Source: an uncultured Methylomirabilota bacterium
GTDB lineage: Bacteria > Methylomirabilota > Methylomirabilia > Methylomirabilales > 2-02-FULL-66-22
Reading direction: 5' to 3'
Assembly (NCBI GenBank): GCA_963705305.1
Contig: OY970067.1
Span: forward strand, 1,120,001-1,184,000
DNA length: 64,000 nucleotides
Shown here one piece after another: positions 5,431-61,529 of this stretch. Each line of letters opens with the position of its first letter. The first letter of the stretch is position 1. The position numbers and the translations under genes are program-made. The notes beneath the pieces were generated by a model, which was given only the letters and a program-made list of their open reading frames with translations, made no database searches and had not been told where the DNA came from.

Positions 5431-5648
5431 TCTCTCGCCCTCCAGAGCCCCTAAAAGGGTAATGAAAAACTCGTTTTCGCTCAGGCTGCTCAAAAAGGTC
5501 CAGCTGCAAGGCGGCCCGCAAAGCGCGGGGCACCCGCCACGGGCGGGTCAAGGCGTACTTCCGGTACGCCGCAGCGAGTGCCCGAGTGGGCGGGGTACCC
5601 ATCCGAAGGATGGGCACCCATCAGATGGGTACCCGGCAGATGGGCCTT

Positions 5649-7628
5649 GTAGAGTCAAAGTGGAGCGCGGTCCTGCGCTCGCCCTCGAATCGGTCGCCGC
5701 ACGCGGCTACTGGAGACCACGACGAAGCACCAGACCGTTTCCCCACTCTGCTCATCGAACCGTGCGTGCGGTATTCCCGCACACGGCTCTCGGACGGGTT
5801 TCACACCCCGGCATGCGCAGGCGGCGCCAGACGGACACCGCGCAGCGAGAACACCCCCAGCTCGCCAAACACCCGAGCGAGGCGGAACCGCCGCGTCCCT
5901 CGCGAGGGGACCTTGTGCCGACGCCGCAGGAAGTCGCGCACGCGCTCATAGACGTAGTGGTCCACCGCGCGGTAGGCCAGCCAGCGCGTCCCGTAGGAGA
6001 AGTAGTGGGCCCAGCCCCGGAGCACGGAGTTGAGATCGACCACGATCATCTCCCAGGGCGCCTGGTTGCCCGGCCGGAGGATTCCCCGGATGCGCCCCTT
6101 GACCCGCTGCACCGCCTTCTTGGCGGGCGCGGCCCCCAGGTACCCATGCCCATCCTTCCGGTAGTGCAGCGGCCCGAAGGTGTAGCCCAGGAAGGTGAAC
6201 GGCTCGCGCCGCCCGTCGACCACCCGGGTCTTCTGCTCGTTGAGCGTCAGCCCCATCTGGGTGAACCAGCGGCGCGTCTGCGCGAGGACCTCGGCTGCCC
6301 CATGCTGGCACAGGATCACGAAGTCATCCGCGTAGGAGATGAGCCGCGCCCCGTACCGCCGGTCGAGCCCCCGCAGGCGAAAGACTTTCAGGAAGCGGTT
6401 CATGTAGAGGTTGGCGAGCAGCGGCGAGACACATCCGCCTTGCGGCGTGCCCCGCGTGCTCCGCTTCCCCCCGCTGAACCGCCACCCGCCGCCGTCGGCC
6501 CGCTCCGCCACTGGCGCCTTGAGCCACCGCTTGAGCAGCCGGAGCAGCCGGCGATCGCTCAGGCGGCGGGCCAGCGGTTGCATGAGGTCGGCGTGTGGAA
6601 TCGAGTCGAAGTAGCCCGATACGTCGGCGTCAATCACCGCGGAGTGCCCGGCGCACAGCTCCCGGTGCACTGCCTGGACGGCCTGCAAGGCCGTGCGCCC
6701 CGGCCGATAGCCATAGGCCGTGGGTGCCAGGTCCACCTCGAAGATCGGTTGCAGGATCAGCAGCGCGGCGGTTTGGACCACCCGGTCTCGGATGACAGGA
6801 ATCCCGAGCGGCCGCTCCCCGACCCCGCCCGGCTTGGGAATGCGCACCCGCCGCACCGGTTGCGGCCGATACGTCTCGGTACGCAGCGCCTCCTGCACTG
6901 CGGCCAGCCATGGCTCCACCCCTGCCGCCTCGATGTCCGCGAAGGTCACCCCGTCCACGCCCGGCGCGCCCCCGTGCTGCTTGCTCAGGGCGTAGGCATG
7001 GGCCAGGACGTCCAGGCGGTACACCTTGTCGTACAGGAGGTAGAAGCGGTAGGCCGGCTCCTGCTTGGCCTTGATGTAGAGCGCCTCTTGGAGCCGCCGG
7101 AGCTTTGTTGGAGTTGCCAGGCTCACGCCAATCTCCCACCCCTTGACTCGGTGCGACGCACCCCGAACCAGGGTCCCTTCCCTCCCCACCGGTTGTGTTG
7201 TCCGATGGGTACCCGCGGTACTGTGGACCCCTCCGACGCCCAGAGCCGCCCCCACCCCAACGATGGGGCGAGGGGCGCGACCCCTCGCGGCGTTGGGCCT
7301 CCCGTGTTGCGCTCTGCTCTCTGCCGACGTGCCACGCCCCATACCCCGGTGAGGGACTCCGTCGTCATCGGTCGGTTGCTCCTACGGAGCCGGCGGTCTT
7401 CCCTGACTGAAAAGCAGGTCGACCCTCACGACAGCACTTTCGAGGCTTGCCCAGGCTTCACGCATGTTGCGGCCCGTCCGCTTGCGGACCCACCCACGGT
7501 GGGCCCCTGTCCCGAGGGCTTCGGCCAGTCGGTTACCCTCCTTGCCGCCTCGGTAGCTACTGGGGTGTACCGACAACTCCCCAGGCCGGACTTGCACCGG
7601 CAAGAGCAAAGCGCCTTTCACGGCGCGC
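5649..7628 (-). mobile_element. group II intron (complete, IIB-like)
   Basis: 5' end GCGCG..GGTGCAAGTCC; domain V GAGAGCCGTGTGCGGGAATACCGCACGCACGGTTCG after the ORF stop; domain VI ending ..GACTCTAC; removal restores an intact repeat terminus. Confidence 0.92.
5801..7126 (-). CDS. ltrA: group II intron reverse transcriptase/maturase (no obvious endonuclease domain)
   Basis: RFYLLYDKVYR, GAPGVDG, RPLGIP..DRVVQ, GTPQGGCVSPLLANLY, YADD, LRGWAHYF; GTG start after GGGAGA. Confidence 0.95.
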   Translation of the reverse strand: MSLATPTKLRRLQEALYIKAKQEPAYRFYLLYDKVYRLDVLAHAYALSKQHGGAPGVDGVTFADIEAAGVEPWLAAVQEALRTETYRPQPVRRVRIPKPGGVGERPLGIPVIRDRVVQTAALLILQPIFEVDLAPTAYGYRPGRTALQAVQAVHRELCAGHSAVIDADVSGYFDSIPHADLMQPLARRLSDRRLLRLLKRWLKAPVAERADGGGWRFSGGKRSTRGTPQGGCVSPLLANLYMNRFLKVFRLRGLDRRYGARLISYADDFVILCQHGAAEVLAQTRRWFTQMGLTLNEQKTRVVDGRREPFTFLGYTFGPLHYRKDGHGYLGAAPAKKAVQRVKGRIRGILRPGNQAPWEMIVVDLNSVLRGWAHYFSYGTRWLAYRAVDHYVYERVRDFLRRRHKVPSRGTRRFRLARVFGELGVFSLRGVRLAPPAHAGV

Positions 7629-7740
7629 TTTCAGCAGCCTGCTAAGCGCGCGGGGCGCCTCGGCCGCCCCCTCGCCGGTCCCCGGCACGGCGGGGCCGCT
7701 GGCAGGGGGGCGTAAATTGCAGAAGGTGTCAGCGCACCCT

Positions 7741-8850
7741 TCAACGCAGGCCTTCCTCCGCTTTGGCGATCACCGCTTCCGTCGGCAGGCACTGGTCGAA
7801 CCCGTGGGGCGGATACAATCGGAGCGCCTCCCTGGCATGCTTCAGGGAAGCGGTGAGTTTTTCCCTGCGTACAGTCACGTCGTCCGTGACCGCGGCCTCC
7901 GCCAGCAGATCGATGGCCAGCAGATGCTCGATCCAGGCCGTGCGCTGGGGGCAGTAGCCGCGCGGGCGCGAATAGCAGATGGTGACACCGCTGTCGCCGC
8001 CGGTCTCGCCGGCGGGCAGGTCGCGGACATTGTCCAGGTAGCGGTAGAAGTCGTTCTCGTACGGGCTCAGGTCCGCCTGCGCCGCCGCGGTCTTCGACTG
8101 GATGCAGCCTTGCGGCGTGAACAGGTCCTGCCTCATCAGCCGGATCAGTTCACCCTGGTAGTAGAGCGCGTGGCCGTTGTCCGGATCCAGCGCCAGAAGC
8201 TCCCGGATATCGGCTTGCACGGCCGTGAAATCGGGCTTGCCGTTCTGCAGCATGGCATCCCGGGCGGCGGCGAAATGGGTCTTCAGTGCGCCGGCGAGAT
8301 GGACCATGCGCACGGGCGGGCATCTATCGCGGTACACGATCACGCCGGTCACGAGCAGGGCCGCGACCACAACGACAGGGATCCAGAGTCTGCGGGGTTT
8401 CCGCCGCGCCACCGGCATGGACGACGGCCTGCCGGTTCCGGAGGCTGTCCCGTCCAGCAGGCCGCGAACGGTCTGCGCCAGCAATTCGAGATGCGGCGCC
8501 AGCGGCGGTCGGAAGGCATCGAGCCACTGGGTGGTGCCTAGGAAATATTCCATGGAACCCGCTGGCGCCACATCCTCCAGGCGAACCGGGATGATGTCCA
8601 CGCCCTTGGCCACCGCGCGCTCCACCTCGCGCAGCACCTGGGGCGAGCCGTTGGAGCGGCCGCTGAACAGCAGCACCATCACGCGGCAGCCGTTGATGCC
8701 CTCGATGATGGAGCCGCCCCAGTCGTGGCCCGGCGGGATGTCTCGCGGCGCCATCCACACGCGGATGCCGGCATGCTCCAGCGCTGCGCACACCTGCGCG
8801 GCGACCTGGTCGTCCTTGCTGGAGTGGCTCAGGAAGACATCGCGTGCCAT
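7741..8850 (-). CDS. TIR domain protein with transmembrane helix and C-terminal TPR-like region
   Basis: DVFLSHSSKD..WMAPRDIPPG..REVERA..IIPVRLED (TIR_2); TM LWIPVVVVAALLVTGVIVY; LALDPDNGHALYYQG. Confidence 0.85.
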   Translation of the reverse strand: MARDVFLSHSSKDDQVAAQVCAALEHAGIRVWMAPRDIPPGHDWGGSIIEGINGCRVMVLLFSGRSNGSPQVLREVERAVAKGVDIIPVRLEDVAPAGSMEYFLGTTQWLDAFRPPLAPHLELLAQTVRGLLDGTASGTGRPSSMPVARRKPRRLWIPVVVVAALLVTGVIVYRDRCPPVRMVHLAGALKTHFAAARDAMLQNGKPDFTAVQADIRELLALDPDNGHALYYQGELIRLMRQDLFTPQGCIQSKTAAAQADLSPYENDFYRYLDNVRDLPAGETGGDSGVTICYSRPRGYCPQRTAWIEHLLAIDLLAEAAVTDDVTVRREKLTASLKHAREALRLYPPHGFDQCLPTEAVIAKAEEGLR

Positions 8851-9425
8851 GGTGAAGGCCCCCGATTCCGCCGGCACATCGTATCGGCTCTCAGCGCCGG
8901 CCGGTCTCGCCGGGTGCCGCGATGGCGTGGGCTTCCCGCCCCCAGGCGAGCTTCTGCGGCCGCGGCAGGCGCTGGAGGTCCGCTTCGAGCCGCAGCGCCT
9001 GGGAACGCGCGCCCTGTATGCCGCTGCGGTGTTCCTGGAGACGCCGCGCCGGTTCCATGGTGAAGTCGATATGGCCTGCGCCCATTGACGGGTGCACCCG
9101 TAATGGTAGTCCAAGCCGGCTCCGAACGCCAGCACAGGGCGCGGCTGCGGGAGCAGCGTGGCGATCGCCCGCGCCCCGGGGGCGAACAATCGGGAATGCT
9201 GCGGTCTGGGTCGCTCTTACGCCGATATGGATAGTGATAGCGGCAAGGGCGGCTCGCAAGGGAGGATGACAAAGACTGGAACGTCCCCTCTGACGACAGC
9301 GGCGTTCTTCTGTTACCGGCTTGAGGACGGCTAGGCCGTTCGACGTGTCCCACCTTGACGACCCGTCGCTTTCGGCTAAGATGGCGGCGGTTCTTTCTCA
9401 AACCCCGCATTTCCGGAGGTGGTCC

Positions 9426-15579: not shown

Positions 15580-15818
15580 CAGGTTGCTCAAAAAGGCGCA
15601 GATGTCCCTCGACTTCGCTCGGGACCGTGAGCCTGTCGAATGGCAAGGCGGCCTCACCCATCCCTCGGGATGGGTACCCGGGCCGAGCACCCGCCGCAGA
15701 CGGGTCAAGGCGTACCTCCGGTACGCCGCAGCGAGTATCCGAGCGGGCGGGGCACCCATCCGAAGGATGGGCACCCATCAGATGGGTACCCGGCAGATGG
15801 GCCTTTTTCAGCAGCCTG
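15580..15818. mobile_element. MITE/REP-like element copy B
   Basis: caggttgctcaaaaagg...cctttttcagcagcctg followed by CTAG; a second CTAG at 15503 may mark an outer boundary. Confidence 0.8.
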
Positions 15819-16490
15819 CTAGGGCGTGATGCCCGACCAGTGCAAGAGCTCGTCGGCCGGCACGCGCGTCCGCGGGAAACGGTTCACCGGCGCTTCCGTG
15901 ACCGGGTAGCCGATGGGCAGGGCCAGCATCACCCGCTTGCTCTCGGGGATCCCGAGGACCTCGTGGAAGATCCAGGGATAGCGGAGTGGCGCCGCCTGCG
16001 GGCAGGTGCCCAACCCCTTCCCGTGCGCCAGGAGCTCCAAGGCCAAAGAGATCGCCCCCACGTCCATAACCGCCAGCTCTGTGAAGGCCCGCTCCATGCT
16101 GAGGAGGATGACCTGGGGGGCGTCGAAGAACCCGATCCCGGCAAGGGACCACTCGTCCTTCCTGGCTTTGTCATCCGCCGCGATCCCCAGCGCCTGGAGC
16201 ACGGCGTTTCCCATCTCCAGGCGGCGCTGCTTGAAGCGCTCGGGAAGCTGCGCCGGCCAGCCCATCTCCGGCTTGCCGACGGGATCGGCGGCTGCCGCCT
16301 CGCGCAGGCGTGTGCGGAGCTTCTGAAGCGACTCTCCGCCCACGATCGTGAATTCCCACGGCTGGGTGTTGGCCGCGGAAGGGGCCCAGTGCGCCTGGTC
16401 AACCAGCTCCCGGAGGATGGCAGGCGGCACGGGATCGGGGCGAAACACACGGATGCTGCGGCGTCCTCGGACGGCGTCTTCGAGCTGCAT
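15819..16490 (-). CDS. nitroreductase family protein
   Basis: GRRSIRVF, WAPSAANTQPW, GLGTC, IGYP; GGAGG RBS. Confidence 0.9.
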   Translation of the reverse strand: MQLEDAVRGRRSIRVFRPDPVPPAILRELVDQAHWAPSAANTQPWEFTIVGGESLQKLRTRLREAAAADPVGKPEMGWPAQLPERFKQRRLEMGNAVLQALGIAADDKARKDEWSLAGIGFFDAPQVILLSMERAFTELAVMDVGAISLALELLAHGKGLGTCPQAAPLRYPWIFHEVLGIPESKRVMLALPIGYPVTEAPVNRFPRTRVPADELLHWSGITP

Positions 16491-39611: not shown

Positions 39612-39764
39612 CAGGATGCTGAAAAACCAGTCTTCGCTCAGGCTGCTCAAAAAGGCCCAGGTGCAAGGCGCCACGTAATCCGAGGCGCGAGGCGTACTTA
39701 GCGCGTACGCCGCAGCGCCGCGGGAGCGGGGCAACGCTGCAGATGGGACTTTTTCAGCAGCCTG
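39612..39764. mobile_element. MITE/REP-like element copy D (minimal form) between nuoF and nuoG
   Basis: CTAG|caggatgctgaaaaa ... tttttcagcagcctg|CTAG; 15-bp terminal inverted repeat with 4-bp direct flanks. Confidence 0.85.
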
Positions 39765-57800: not shown

Positions 57801-58013
57801 CAGGCTGCTGAAAAAGTCCCGGCTGCCCGCCGCAGGCGGATTGGCACGCTCGGGCACTCGCTGCGGCGTACCGGAAGTACGCCTTGACCCGCCAGTGGCG
57901 GGTGCTCGCCCCCGGGTACCCATCCCGAGGGGTGGGTGATGCCGCCTTACCGCTCGACAGGCTCGCGGTCCCGAGCGAAGTCGAGGGGCATCTGGGCCCT
58001 TTTGAGCAGCCTG
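57801..58013. mobile_element. MITE/REP-like element copy E (inverted orientation)
   Basis: caggctgctgaaaaag...ccttttgagcagcctg; internal modules are reverse complements of those in copy B; abuts the stop codons of both convergent genes. Confidence 0.82.
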
Positions 58014-60009: not shown

Positions 60010-61529
60010 CCCTAATCTCCGGCTAAGAAGTTGAGGGGGATCGCGAATCACGCAGCGGCCCGCAGTGCGCGCGGCCCGCGGGGTTGGCATCGGCCTTGCT
60101 TGGTTTCACCCAGTGGGTGCAAACACCACAAGGAGGAGAGCGATGCCCGACACCTCGCCCCGGTTGCCGTTCGAGATCGATGACGCGATCGACCCCACGC
60201 TGGTCACGGGCCGGGCCGGGGTCCCGCTCGTGATCGAGCTGTTCCGCCAGCTCGGGGTGGCCCAGGCCGTCGACACCCACGTTGCGGTCAAGCAGCGGCA
60301 GCGCGGATTACCCCCCTCGCAGCTCGTGGAGAGTCTCGTCGCGTTGTGGACGAGCGGCGGGGACCGCTGCCAGGACCTCACGACGCTCCGGGAGGATCAG
60401 GCCCTGGCCACGCTGCTCGGCTACCCCCTGCCGGCCGCGACCACGGTCCGGGACTTCCTCGAGGCCTTCCACGTGGAGGACGGGCCGCTCTGGGTGGCCG
60501 GGCCCGCGGCCACGGTCCCCCTGGAGTCCGCCCCCTTGGCGGGCCTCGGACAGGCGAACCGGACGCTGGTCGCGGGCGTCCAGCGCGGGGCCCGGGCGGC
60601 GACGGCCACCCTGGATGTGGACGCGACGCTCGTCGAGAGCCACAAGGACGCGGCGACCGTGGCCTACGACGGGACCCGGGGCTACCAGCCCGTCGTGGTC
60701 CTCTGGGCCGAGCACGATGTCATCGTGCACGACCAGTTCCGCGATGGCCAGGTGCCCGCCGGGTGCGGCAACGTGCGCGTCCTCGAACAGGCGGTGGCCA
60801 ACTTGCCCCAGGGCGTGGACCGCATCTCCCTGCGGGCCGACAGCGCCCTCTACGAGACGGAGGTCCTCCGCTGGTGCGAGGAGAAGAAAATCGCCTACGC
60901 GATTAGCGCCGATATGTCCGCGCAGCTCCAGGCCGAGATCCGGCGCCTCCCCGCGGCCGCCTGGCAGCTCGAGCGGGAGGAGCCCGAGGCGATCCGGGCC
61001 TGGGCCGAAGTCCCCTACGTCCCCGAGGATGGCGATCACCGGAAGGCGCGGCCGTGCGTTCGCCGCTACCTCGCGGTGCGTATCCAGCGACGCCAGGGGA
61101 GCCTCTTCGCCGACGGGAGTAGCGTGCAGTACTTCGCCGTGGTCACCAATCGGCCGGAGGATGGGCTCACGATCCTCCGGTGGCACCGGGAGAAAGCAGG
61201 GACCATCGAGCACACCCATCACGTCCTCAAGACCGAGCTGGCGGCCGCCGCGCTGCCCAGTGGGAAGTTCGGGGCGAACGCCGCCTGGTTCCGGCTGAAC
61301 GTGCTCACCTACAACCTGCTCACCGCGCTCAAGCGGTTGACCTTACCCGGAGATCTCCGGACCGCCCGGCCGAAGCGTCTCCGGTTCCTGCTGTTCAACA
61401 CCGTCGGGAAGGTCGTCGCGCATGCCCGACGGACGCTCTTGCGGCTCTCGGGCGCCCTGCAGCACGCCTTGCTCGTCCGGGCGCGGCGCAAGATCGCCCG
61501 GCTGGCCACCGCTTAGCCGGAGATTAGGG
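60010..61529 (+). mobile_element. IS1380-family insertion sequence
   Basis: Perfect 18-bp inverted repeats ccctaatctccggctaag/cttagccggagattaggg; 5-bp direct repeat CCCAA on both sides. Confidence 0.9.
60143..61516 (+). CDS. IS1380-family DDE transposase
   Basis: TGRAG, TLDVDAT, GYQP, FRDG, LRADSA, HREKAGTIE..K, PSGKFGANAAW..YNL. Confidence 0.9.
   Translation: MPDTSPRLPFEIDDAIDPTLVTGRAGVPLVIELFRQLGVAQAVDTHVAVKQRQRGLPPSQLVESLVALWTSGGDRCQDLTTLREDQALATLLGYPLPAATTVRDFLEAFHVEDGPLWVAGPAATVPLESAPLAGLGQANRTLVAGVQRGARAATATLDVDATLVESHKDAATVAYDGTRGYQPVVVLWAEHDVIVHDQFRDGQVPAGCGNVRVLEQAVANLPQGVDRISLRADSALYETEVLRWCEEKKIAYAISADMSAQLQAEIRRLPAAAWQLEREEPEAIRAWAEVPYVPEDGDHRKARPCVRRYLAVRIQRRQGSLFADGSSVQYFAVVTNRPEDGLTILRWHREKAGTIEHTHHVLKTELAAAALPSGKFGANAAWFRLNVLTYNLLTALKRLTLPGDLRTARPKRLRFLLFNTVGKVVAHARRTLLRLSGALQHALLVRARRKIARLATA

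Follow-up and report, generated by a model that had tools for sequence, protein, structure and literature searches.

Structure of the intron and its host element

The window analyzed in this study (the whole 64,000-nucleotide (nt) stretch from position 1,120,001 to 1,184,000 of contig OY970067.1, forward strand, from an uncultured Methylomirabilota bacterium) carries on its minus strand a group II intron, which interrupts the left terminal inverted repeat (TIR) of a miniature inverted-repeat transposable element (MITE). The parts of the intron and of its host are listed below, with positions referring to the window unless the genome is named.

5649..7628, minus strand: group II intron, 1980 nt, with 5′ end GCGCG and 3′ end CUCUAC
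7462..7603, minus strand: core of domain I, matched by Rfam RF02003 (group-II-D1D4-4; 99.4 bits, E 5.8e-21)
5649..5791, minus strand: domains V and VI, matched by Rfam RF00029 (40.9 bits, cut-off 40)
5801..7342, minus strand: open reading frame (ORF) with matches to RVT_1 (2.9e-33) and GIIM (8e-15)
5801..7126, minus strand: intron-encoded protein (IEP), GTG start at 7126-7124, 441 aa plus stop, with reverse transcriptase (RT) domains including YADD, and maturase domain X
7642..7645, minus strand: left target-site duplication (TSD) TTAG, at exon positions -17..-14; the same TTAG lies beyond the right end
7629..7641, minus strand: first 13 nt of the left TIR, CAGGCTGCTGAAA, forming the end of the 5′ exon, with the intron-binding site IBS1 GCUGAAA at 7635-7629
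5455..5648, minus strand: remainder of the host MITE, forming the 3′ exon; AAGGCCCATCTGC...GGACCTTTTTGAGCAGCCTG (inner right repeat), then a degenerate outer right repeat, GAGCGAAAACGAGTTTTTCATTACCCTT
5451..5454, minus strand: right TSD, TTAG

The presence of a group II intron at 5649-7628 had been proposed in a first-pass annotation made from the letters alone, and is confirmed by the matches to RF02003 and RF00029 and by the RT/maturase ORF in domain IV. Its boundaries were set by comparison with empty copies of the MITE and by alignment with 70+ homologs; the ribozyme without the ORF amounts to 654 nt (1980 - 1326). RF02003 was also matched in 18 of the 20 homolog loci scanned, and 79 of the 119 pairs in a consensus fold of domain I (24 sequences) showed compensatory changes. 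Domain V contains an AGC triad and a 5-nt loop, GAAUA.

The start of the IEP was placed at GTG 7126 because the alignment puts this codon opposite the ATG of the homologs. Residues 1-441 match the two closest relatives over their full length (86% for locus L001 and 82% for L002), and the C-terminus reads ...RFRLARVFGELGVFSLRGVRLAPPAHAGV. A domain scan of ORF 5801-7342 did not find an endonuclease domain. The full intron is present in one copy in the 5.65-Mb genome and shares its orientation with both flanking genes, so that read-through transcripts could be spliced.

Without the intron, the host MITE (7641-5455) measures 207 bp and has TTAG on both sides. Excision of 7628-5649 joins ...CAGGCTGCTGAAA to AAGGCCCATCTGC..., and a 220-nt query, consisting of the MITE locus with the intron removed by script, aligned with uninterrupted copies without any gap at the junction (95.1% over 205 nt at genome positions 2179345-2179549, and 94.1% over 135 nt at window positions 15687-15821). 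This gapless alignment indicates that the insertion was precise. It also upholds the earlier statements that removal of the intron restores a MITE end and that the 5′ exon ends with the first 13 nt of the element terminus, CAGGCTGCTGAAA being read at 7641-7629.

The left end of the MITE family is CAGGCTGCTGAAAAAGGCCCATCTGC; its terminal repeat, CAGGCTGCTGAAAAAGG, has two counterparts on the right, CCTTTTTGAGCAGCCTG in the inner and GTTTTTCAGCA(T/G)CCTG in the outer position. Both ends adjoin CTAG-like tetranucleotides. The left flanks of 42 paired elements included CTAG (16), CTAA (5), GTAG (4) and TTAG (3), the copy at 39.7 kb of the window lies between CTAG and CTAG, and four copies with a full outer end are flanked by CTAG-like sequences on both sides. 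The first-pass annotation had described the intron as lying next to stop codons; the tetranucleotide is indeed there, but it is better explained as the YTAR (CTAG/TTAG) TSD of the MITE.

Genome-wide, the family comprises roughly 100 copies; it yielded 228 BLAST pieces and 205 motif hits, and it was found in 21/21 genomes of the genus. Summed contig depths over the MITE body (window 5468-5635) rose as high as 1831 in metagenome runs from sediment, freshwater and soil, and the family appears to be abundant in metagenomes beyond its own genome.

Recognition of the insertion site by EBS1 and EBS3

Two exon-binding sites (EBS) could be placed in domain I.

7402..7418, minus strand: EBS1 hairpin, with stem CCUG/CAGG (7418-7415/7405-7402) and 9-nt loop CUUUUCAGU
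7340..7342, minus strand: 3′ side of the coordination loop, AUG; EBS3 U7341 pairs with IBS3 A5648

EBS1, UUUCAGU (7412-7406), complements the exon sequence GCUGAAA (7635-7629) over 7 bp. Placement of TTTCAG (7412-7407) in a hairpin loop facing the 5′ exon had already been suggested, and is now backed by covariation: the EBS1 column complements its own exon positions -6..-1 (6 nt) in 39 of the 55 unique-exon homologs, compared with a maximum of 11 in 30 permutations. Relatives from the phylum combine other exons with other loops (CTCAAAA/TTTTGAG, CTGAAAA/TTTTCAG, TCTCATT/AATGAGA and TGAATAA/TTATTCG).

With respect to EBS3, the column of U7341 and the first base of the 3′ exon form Watson-Crick pairs in 18/24 sequences (22/24 if G-U is allowed). 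This was the best of 557 columns, the runner-up reaching 14. The U7341-A5648 pair has the coordination-loop arrangement of IIB introns.

The proposed EBS2 motif and a new candidate

The first-pass annotation paired two hexamers with the exon in the manner of a canonical IIB intron: EBS1 UUUCAG (7412-7407) with positions -6..-1, and EBS2 AGCCUG (7457-7452) with positions -13..-8. Both are present where the annotation had located them and exactly complement the exon, and their order (EBS2, then EBS1, approx. 40 nt apart) is IIB-like. The following features bear on the second hexamer.

7453..7456, minus strand: GCCU, core of the proposed EBS2 hexamer; 5′ strand of a structural helix
7336..7339, minus strand: GGGC; 3′ strand of the helix with 7456-7453
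7430..7440, minus strand: asymmetric internal loop of 11 nt, AAAGUGCUGUC, past the coordination loop and before the EBS1 hairpin, where IIB introns canonically carry EBS2

RNAalifold placed the helix 7456-7453/7339-7336 directly beneath the coordination loop, whereas EBS2 is expected above it. In this helix 92/92 cells were paired and three of the four pairs had compensatory changes (a value as high was obtained in 0/500 shuffles), while in slid controls, with the partner shifted by 1-3 columns, only 17-55% of cells were paired. Changes on both sides were represented by GCUU/GAGC, CUCC/GGAG, CCUC/GAGG and UCCU/GGGA. Moreover, the motif GAAGCCUGAGCAGGCCUCG is near-invariant in homologs whose exons (CCCGGA, AACTCG, CCTTCC etc.) lack CAGGCU.

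AGCCUG was therefore rejected as EBS2. On folding, the EBS1 hexamer falls within its EBS loop, but the second hexamer lies outside, with four of its six bases in the helix below the coordination loop. Since the helix covaries and the motif is conserved despite unrelated exons, the AGCCUG-CAGGCU match is most simply regarded as coincidental, AGCCUG being part of a conserved structural motif; one chance 6-mer complement in a domain I of approx. 500 nt is not rare. No alignment column complemented exon windows between -7 and -16 (those at -12..-16 included) above the permutation level, in a control that is weak because most exons are alike. We consider canonical IIB targeting with this hexamer to be most unlikely.

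In the internal loop, a candidate EBS2, UGCUG (7436-7432, loop bases 5-9), can pair with UAGCA (7644-7640, exon -16..-12). A perfect 5-bp match between loop and exon was found in 10/84 unique combinations (permutation mean 4.1; 10 reached in 3/2000), and one subgroup shows a compensatory change at this place (GUUGA/UCAAC to AUUGA/UCAAU). We give this weakly and only statistically supported EBS2 about an even chance of being genuine, because some of the positive combinations are related to one another and no pairing is seen for the most frequent types of loop. The longest complementary run between loop and exon was not used as evidence for EBS2, runs of 5 being expected by chance.

Related introns are associated with transposon ends

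We aligned the 5′ regions of 80 of the 275 IEP relatives found (58-86% identity). A YTAR tetranucleotide was located at -17..-14, exactly 13 nt before the intron, in 47 of the 70 aligned homolog loci, compared with 1.6% expected for a random 4-mer. The exon sequences differ between homologs.

Within 1 kb downstream, the last 15 bases of the exon recur in inverted orientation (with up to 3 mismatches) in 19/60 loci, versus 1/57 upstream controls; only loci with a 3′ flank of 100 nt or more entered this count, those of L001 and L002 being too short. The downstream copy is usually followed by TAG or TAA, and in L001 and L002 the inverted arm lies 12-15 nt past the intron.

A transposase gene with the PF13701 domain (DDE_Tnp_1_4), which we take to mark IS1380-type elements, adjoins the intron in 8 of the 25 loci with translated 3′ flanks (on the plus strand in L010, L016, L020, L025, L030 and L041, and on the minus strand in L008 and L062). 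The remaining 17 loci contain ordinary genes, other transposases or no match. Many homologs are located in small palindromic elements or near IS1380-type transposase genes.

When 251 genomes of the phylum were searched at the DNA level, 38 of them, including the genome studied, had matches, and several of these represent introns in the same MITE family. A relative in genome G221 (82% over the first 360 nt) is inserted in the same left repeat of this MITE family, on the other strand at a distance of 7 nt from the tip, with GGGCCTTTTTCAG before and CAGCCTG-CTAG after the intron. The introns of G116 and G166 and a fragment in G038 are found at the corresponding site of the inner right repeat. In G016, a genome of the same genus, a 5′ fragment follows ...ATGCTGAAA. 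Other relatives from the phylum keep targets of the CCCGGATTATTCG type, and one group inserts after GGAGCCTGTCAACAAGAATGAGA.

The specialization on transposon termini suggested by the first-pass annotation is supported across the lineage by the YTAR offset, the inverted copies, the transposase neighbours and the sister introns in the same MITE. These observations also bear on a chance or ectopic insertion, in which MITEs simply fill the intergenic space and the intron has no specialization for the repeat. Such an event would fit the occupation of a single site among approx. 86 targets, and bacterial introns are often found in intergenic or mobile DNA, as noted in the available text of PMC4181065. 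We nevertheless regard it as very unlikely: EBS1 exactly matches the conserved TIR bases 7-13, four relatives from elsewhere in the phylum are inserted in the repeat of the same MITE family, and the 13-nt offset after YTAR is shared by so many homologs.

Another alternative is structure-guided targeting of the group IIC type, with a DNA hairpin or cruciform of the palindromic element being recognized instead of its sequence. According to the accessible parts of the reports, group IIC introns have an EBS1 of 3-4 bp (PMC7923331) and no EBS2, and are inserted after terminators or attC hairpins (PMC1702495). The intron described here resembles them in finding a safe haven in non-coding DNA that is repeated and palindromic. 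In addition, several homologs are placed in very short palindromes (the arms in L001 are 15 nt apart), and a second intron of this genome, INT2 (see below), lies in a small hairpin motif. In contrast to IIC introns, however, EBS1 has 6-7 bp (7 bp in the present intron) and covaries with the exon, the insertion occurred within the 5′ arm of the repeat and not past the hairpin, and at eight loci the intron occupies a full-length insertion sequence (IS) end, with the partner repeat over 1 kb distant. Recognition of structure instead of sequence is in our opinion quite unlikely.

Several further loci have targets of other kinds. L103-L110, from eight genomes of the phylum, are always found after (C)GGAGCCTGTCAA(C/T)A(A/G)GAATGAGA, approx. 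22 nt into a conserved block starting with CGGAGCC, which is probably another transposon end; in these loci the loop GUUGA/AUUGA covaries with the exon UCAAC/UCAAU. L132 (G238:C93:1-2500; 87% over the first 360 nt) has ...CAGGGTTCGAAT before and CCCGCTGGAGATTCGAACCCTG after the intron, which resemble a tRNA T-arm plus a palindrome; there is no match between its EBS1 loop and its own exon. In the Acidobacteriota loci L028, L058 and L073, motifs of the 3′ flank such as ACAGGCTGCGGAAAAAGTCGTTTCTAGG resemble the MITE ends of this genome, which hints that related end-repeats may exist in another phylum.

Empty target sites

The exact 13-mers reported earlier as empty targets were confirmed at all three positions.

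15806..15818, minus strand: unoccupied 13-nt target in a further copy of the MITE, CTAG plus CAGGCTGCTGAAAAAGGCCC
39752..39764, minus strand: unoccupied 13-nt target in a complete copy of the MITE with CTAG at both flanks
57801..57813, plus strand: empty 13-nt target in another MITE copy

With up to one mismatch, the target 13-mer occurs 9 times in the window, versus 0.05 expected, and 9 occurrences were reached in 0/100 shuffles. The whole genome contains 86 exact copies. It had been suggested that the intron may disable the element or hitch-hike on it; no sign of hitch-hiking was found, the genome containing one copy of the intron.

Cumulative GC skew is lowest near 1.29 Mb and highest at 4.15 Mb, which places the minus-strand intron (1.126 Mb) on the presumed lagging-strand template. 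The downstream SDR gene matches 71-76% in three genomes of the same genus; these matches begin within the gene and provided no orthologous MITE copy for comparison.

Proposed mode of insertion

We consider it likely that a retromobile intron was reverse-spliced into one MITE copy, 13 nt inside its YTAR-flanked left TIR, and that this reflects a trait of the intron lineage combined with a retargeted EBS1. The intron combines IIB-like exon recognition with IIE/IIF-like ribozyme features and an endonuclease-less RT/maturase. The site is defined by the 7-bp EBS1-IBS1 pairing (UUUCAGU/GCUGAAA) plus the 1-bp EBS3-IBS3 pairing (U7341/A5648), the steps that we count as demonstrated.

The remaining steps are more conjectural. 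The distal part of the 5′ exon (-8..-17, i.e. the TSD and the first TIR bases) may be read by the protein, by a short EBS2 (UGCUG/UAGCA), or by both. Because the intron encodes no endonuclease, we propose that cDNA synthesis would be primed by the nascent lagging strand, and the orientation of the intron fits the lagging-strand template. This branch probably retargeted its EBS1 from IS1380-type ends (CCCGGATTATTCG) to the end of this MITE.

Several observations weigh against this interpretation: (i) the second RNA-DNA pairing is only a candidate; (ii) only one site is occupied, versus 80 empty CAGGCTGCTGAAAA sites, 45 of which also have TAGCA and 48 of which (counted by hand) are in the presumed favourable, lagging-strand-template orientation; (iii) the GC-skew minimum is broad (1.2-1.8 Mb) and close to the intron; (iv) the 5′ end of the intron is GCGCG instead of GUGYG; (v) the junction 5648-7629, which would mark either splicing or an empty allele, was present in no contig of four public runs, in which neither intron boundary was bridged either; and (vi) no autonomous element with the ends of the MITE was found in this genome, so that the label MITE derives from TIR, TSD and copy number alone. 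The public runs, used in the form of contigs, were one metatranscriptome and three metagenomes (whose label as DNA is a guess made by the search tool), with a best share of sampled words of 0.37; their lack of the junction is uninformative with regard to splicing. As concerns the last point, only three inverted pairs of MITE ends were 400 nt to 6 kb apart and, judging from the position lists, we take them to be neighbouring MITEs. The single copy beside 80 empty sites may mean either that the intron is recent, that it is silent, or that it needs more than these bases.

Part of this evidence would also suit a stranded relic, i.e. a former homer that is now immobile (because of a silent promoter context, the GCGCG end or other defects of the ribozyme) and persists as the passenger of a dead MITE copy. 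Besides the one copy versus 80 empty sites and the absence of the spliced joint from the contigs, two 5′ fragments of related introns are found elsewhere in the genome. Against such a fate, the ORF has remained intact over its full length and includes YADD, neither domain V nor any helix has been lost, and GCGCG is common to the intact introns of L001 and L002 (the closest relatives), L091, L092 and L096, GUGCG being found in more distant relatives. Furthermore, the metagenome run X1 (possibly the source sample) holds intron contigs with zero differences. We find the relic explanation rather doubtful and retain reverse splicing into the MITE repeat as the better account of the locus.

Tentatively, this account may be extended to a phylum-spanning clade of endonuclease-less IIE/IIF-like introns (Rfam D1D4-4 type), which would be obligate "parasites of parasites" at a fixed 13-nt position in the terminal repeats of IS1380-type ISs and MITEs, tracking new families by rewriting EBS1 and able to switch strand (G221, G116, G166). 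We regard this extension as possible, while leaning somewhat against it. If it is true, an intron that splits the transposase-binding end would act as a brake on the host transposon.

Comparison with known introns

Homing into transposon ends is already known from RmInt2 and therefore does not constitute a new category. As described in the available text of the RmInt2 report, this intron homes into both inverted repeats of ISRm17, is present in seven copies, and had its EBS2 mapped by selection experiments (PMC4615759). The two introns are alike in that they lack an endonuclease, have the TIR of a transposable element as natural target with sites on both strands, depend on the distal 5′ exon (in our case, presumably) and have U-A as EBS3-IBS3. 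They differ in lineage, in the host (a non-autonomous MITE here versus a full IS), in copy number (one versus seven) and in EBS2, which is only a candidate here. The C-terminal motif of class D, LX3AX3PXLF[V/A]HW, as given in that text (PMC4615759), is absent from this IEP.

RmInt1, according to the accessible parts of two reports, is a mobile endonuclease-less intron of the multicopy ISRm2011-2 that prefers the lagging-strand template (PMC4615759, PMC5894124). The present intron, as interpreted above, would share with it the lack of an endonuclease, mobility, a multicopy mobile element as host and the lagging-strand preference. The site of RmInt1 is inside the IS, not in an inverted repeat, and RmInt1 belongs to class D.

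The ribozyme described here is IIE/IIF-like by its ribozyme features, and the closest plasmid-borne IEPs, which have no class labels, are rhizobial (56-62% identity). Groups IIE and IIF are reportedly treated in Toro et al. 2002 and Simon et al. 2008. In the available text of Nagy et al. 2013, introns of these groups have a 5-nt domain V loop and a ribozyme of 450-700 nt, and their EBS2-IBS2 pairing is dispensable for splicing in vitro (PMC3753933). The GAAUA loop of domain V, the 654-nt ribozyme and the IIB-like domain I agree with this description, as do a decisive EBS1 and an EBS2-IBS2 pairing that would be weak or dispensable. Targeting of transposon ends is not discussed in that portion of the paper.

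Our literature search, whose scope left most subscription journals outside, yielded no paper on homing into MITE or IS1380 ends by this lineage. What is new in comparison with RmInt2 is the intron lineage, the MITE target, the lineage-wide 13-nt offset and the fact that sister introns use both strands. The locus is a clean example of one mobile element using the end-repeat of another as a safe multicopy landing pad, in which the guide bases were mapped by comparison, EBS1 and EBS3 being placed and one proposed guide excluded. Judging from the pattern across several phyla, homing into transposon ends seems to be the stable way of life of an intron lineage and not a rhizobial curiosity, and the homologs offer a natural retargeting series for studying how endonuclease-less introns read the distal 5′ exon.

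Other introns, elements and genes

INT2, a second related group II intron, is present in two identical copies (G000:C1 ~1876271-1878271 and ~4098836-4100836), with an RT region approx. 68% identical to that of the first. Both copies are preceded by AAAAAAGGTACCGGACG. There are five intron-free sites containing AAAGGTACCGGA elsewhere in the genome (four with GGAC(A)), three of them resembling a small hairpin, AAAGG-TACCGGACA-CCTTT. The small hairpin motif in which INT2 lies reads, as RNA, AAAGG-UACCGGAC-CCUUU, and the EBS1 loop of INT2, UGUCCG, fits CGGACG.

The two 5′ fragments resembling the first intron (approx. 90% identical) are located at genome positions 373264-373374 (plus strand, 111 nt) and 494353-494391 (minus strand, 39 nt). 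The former is preceded by GAGCCTGGATTCTTCG, a motif resembling an IS1380-type end.

An IS with a 493-aa PF13701 transposase is found at 60203-61504 of the window (plus strand), with approx. 24 further copies in the genome. Its ends, CCCTAATCTCCGG...CCGGAGATTAGGG, are unlike those of the MITE, and some of its copies directly adjoin a derived miniature element (CCCAAATCTCCGGCTAA...).

Upstream of the host MITE, the ORF at 7741-9189 (minus strand) encodes 482 aa, the middle part of which reads like a TIR protein domain (FLSHSSKD...).

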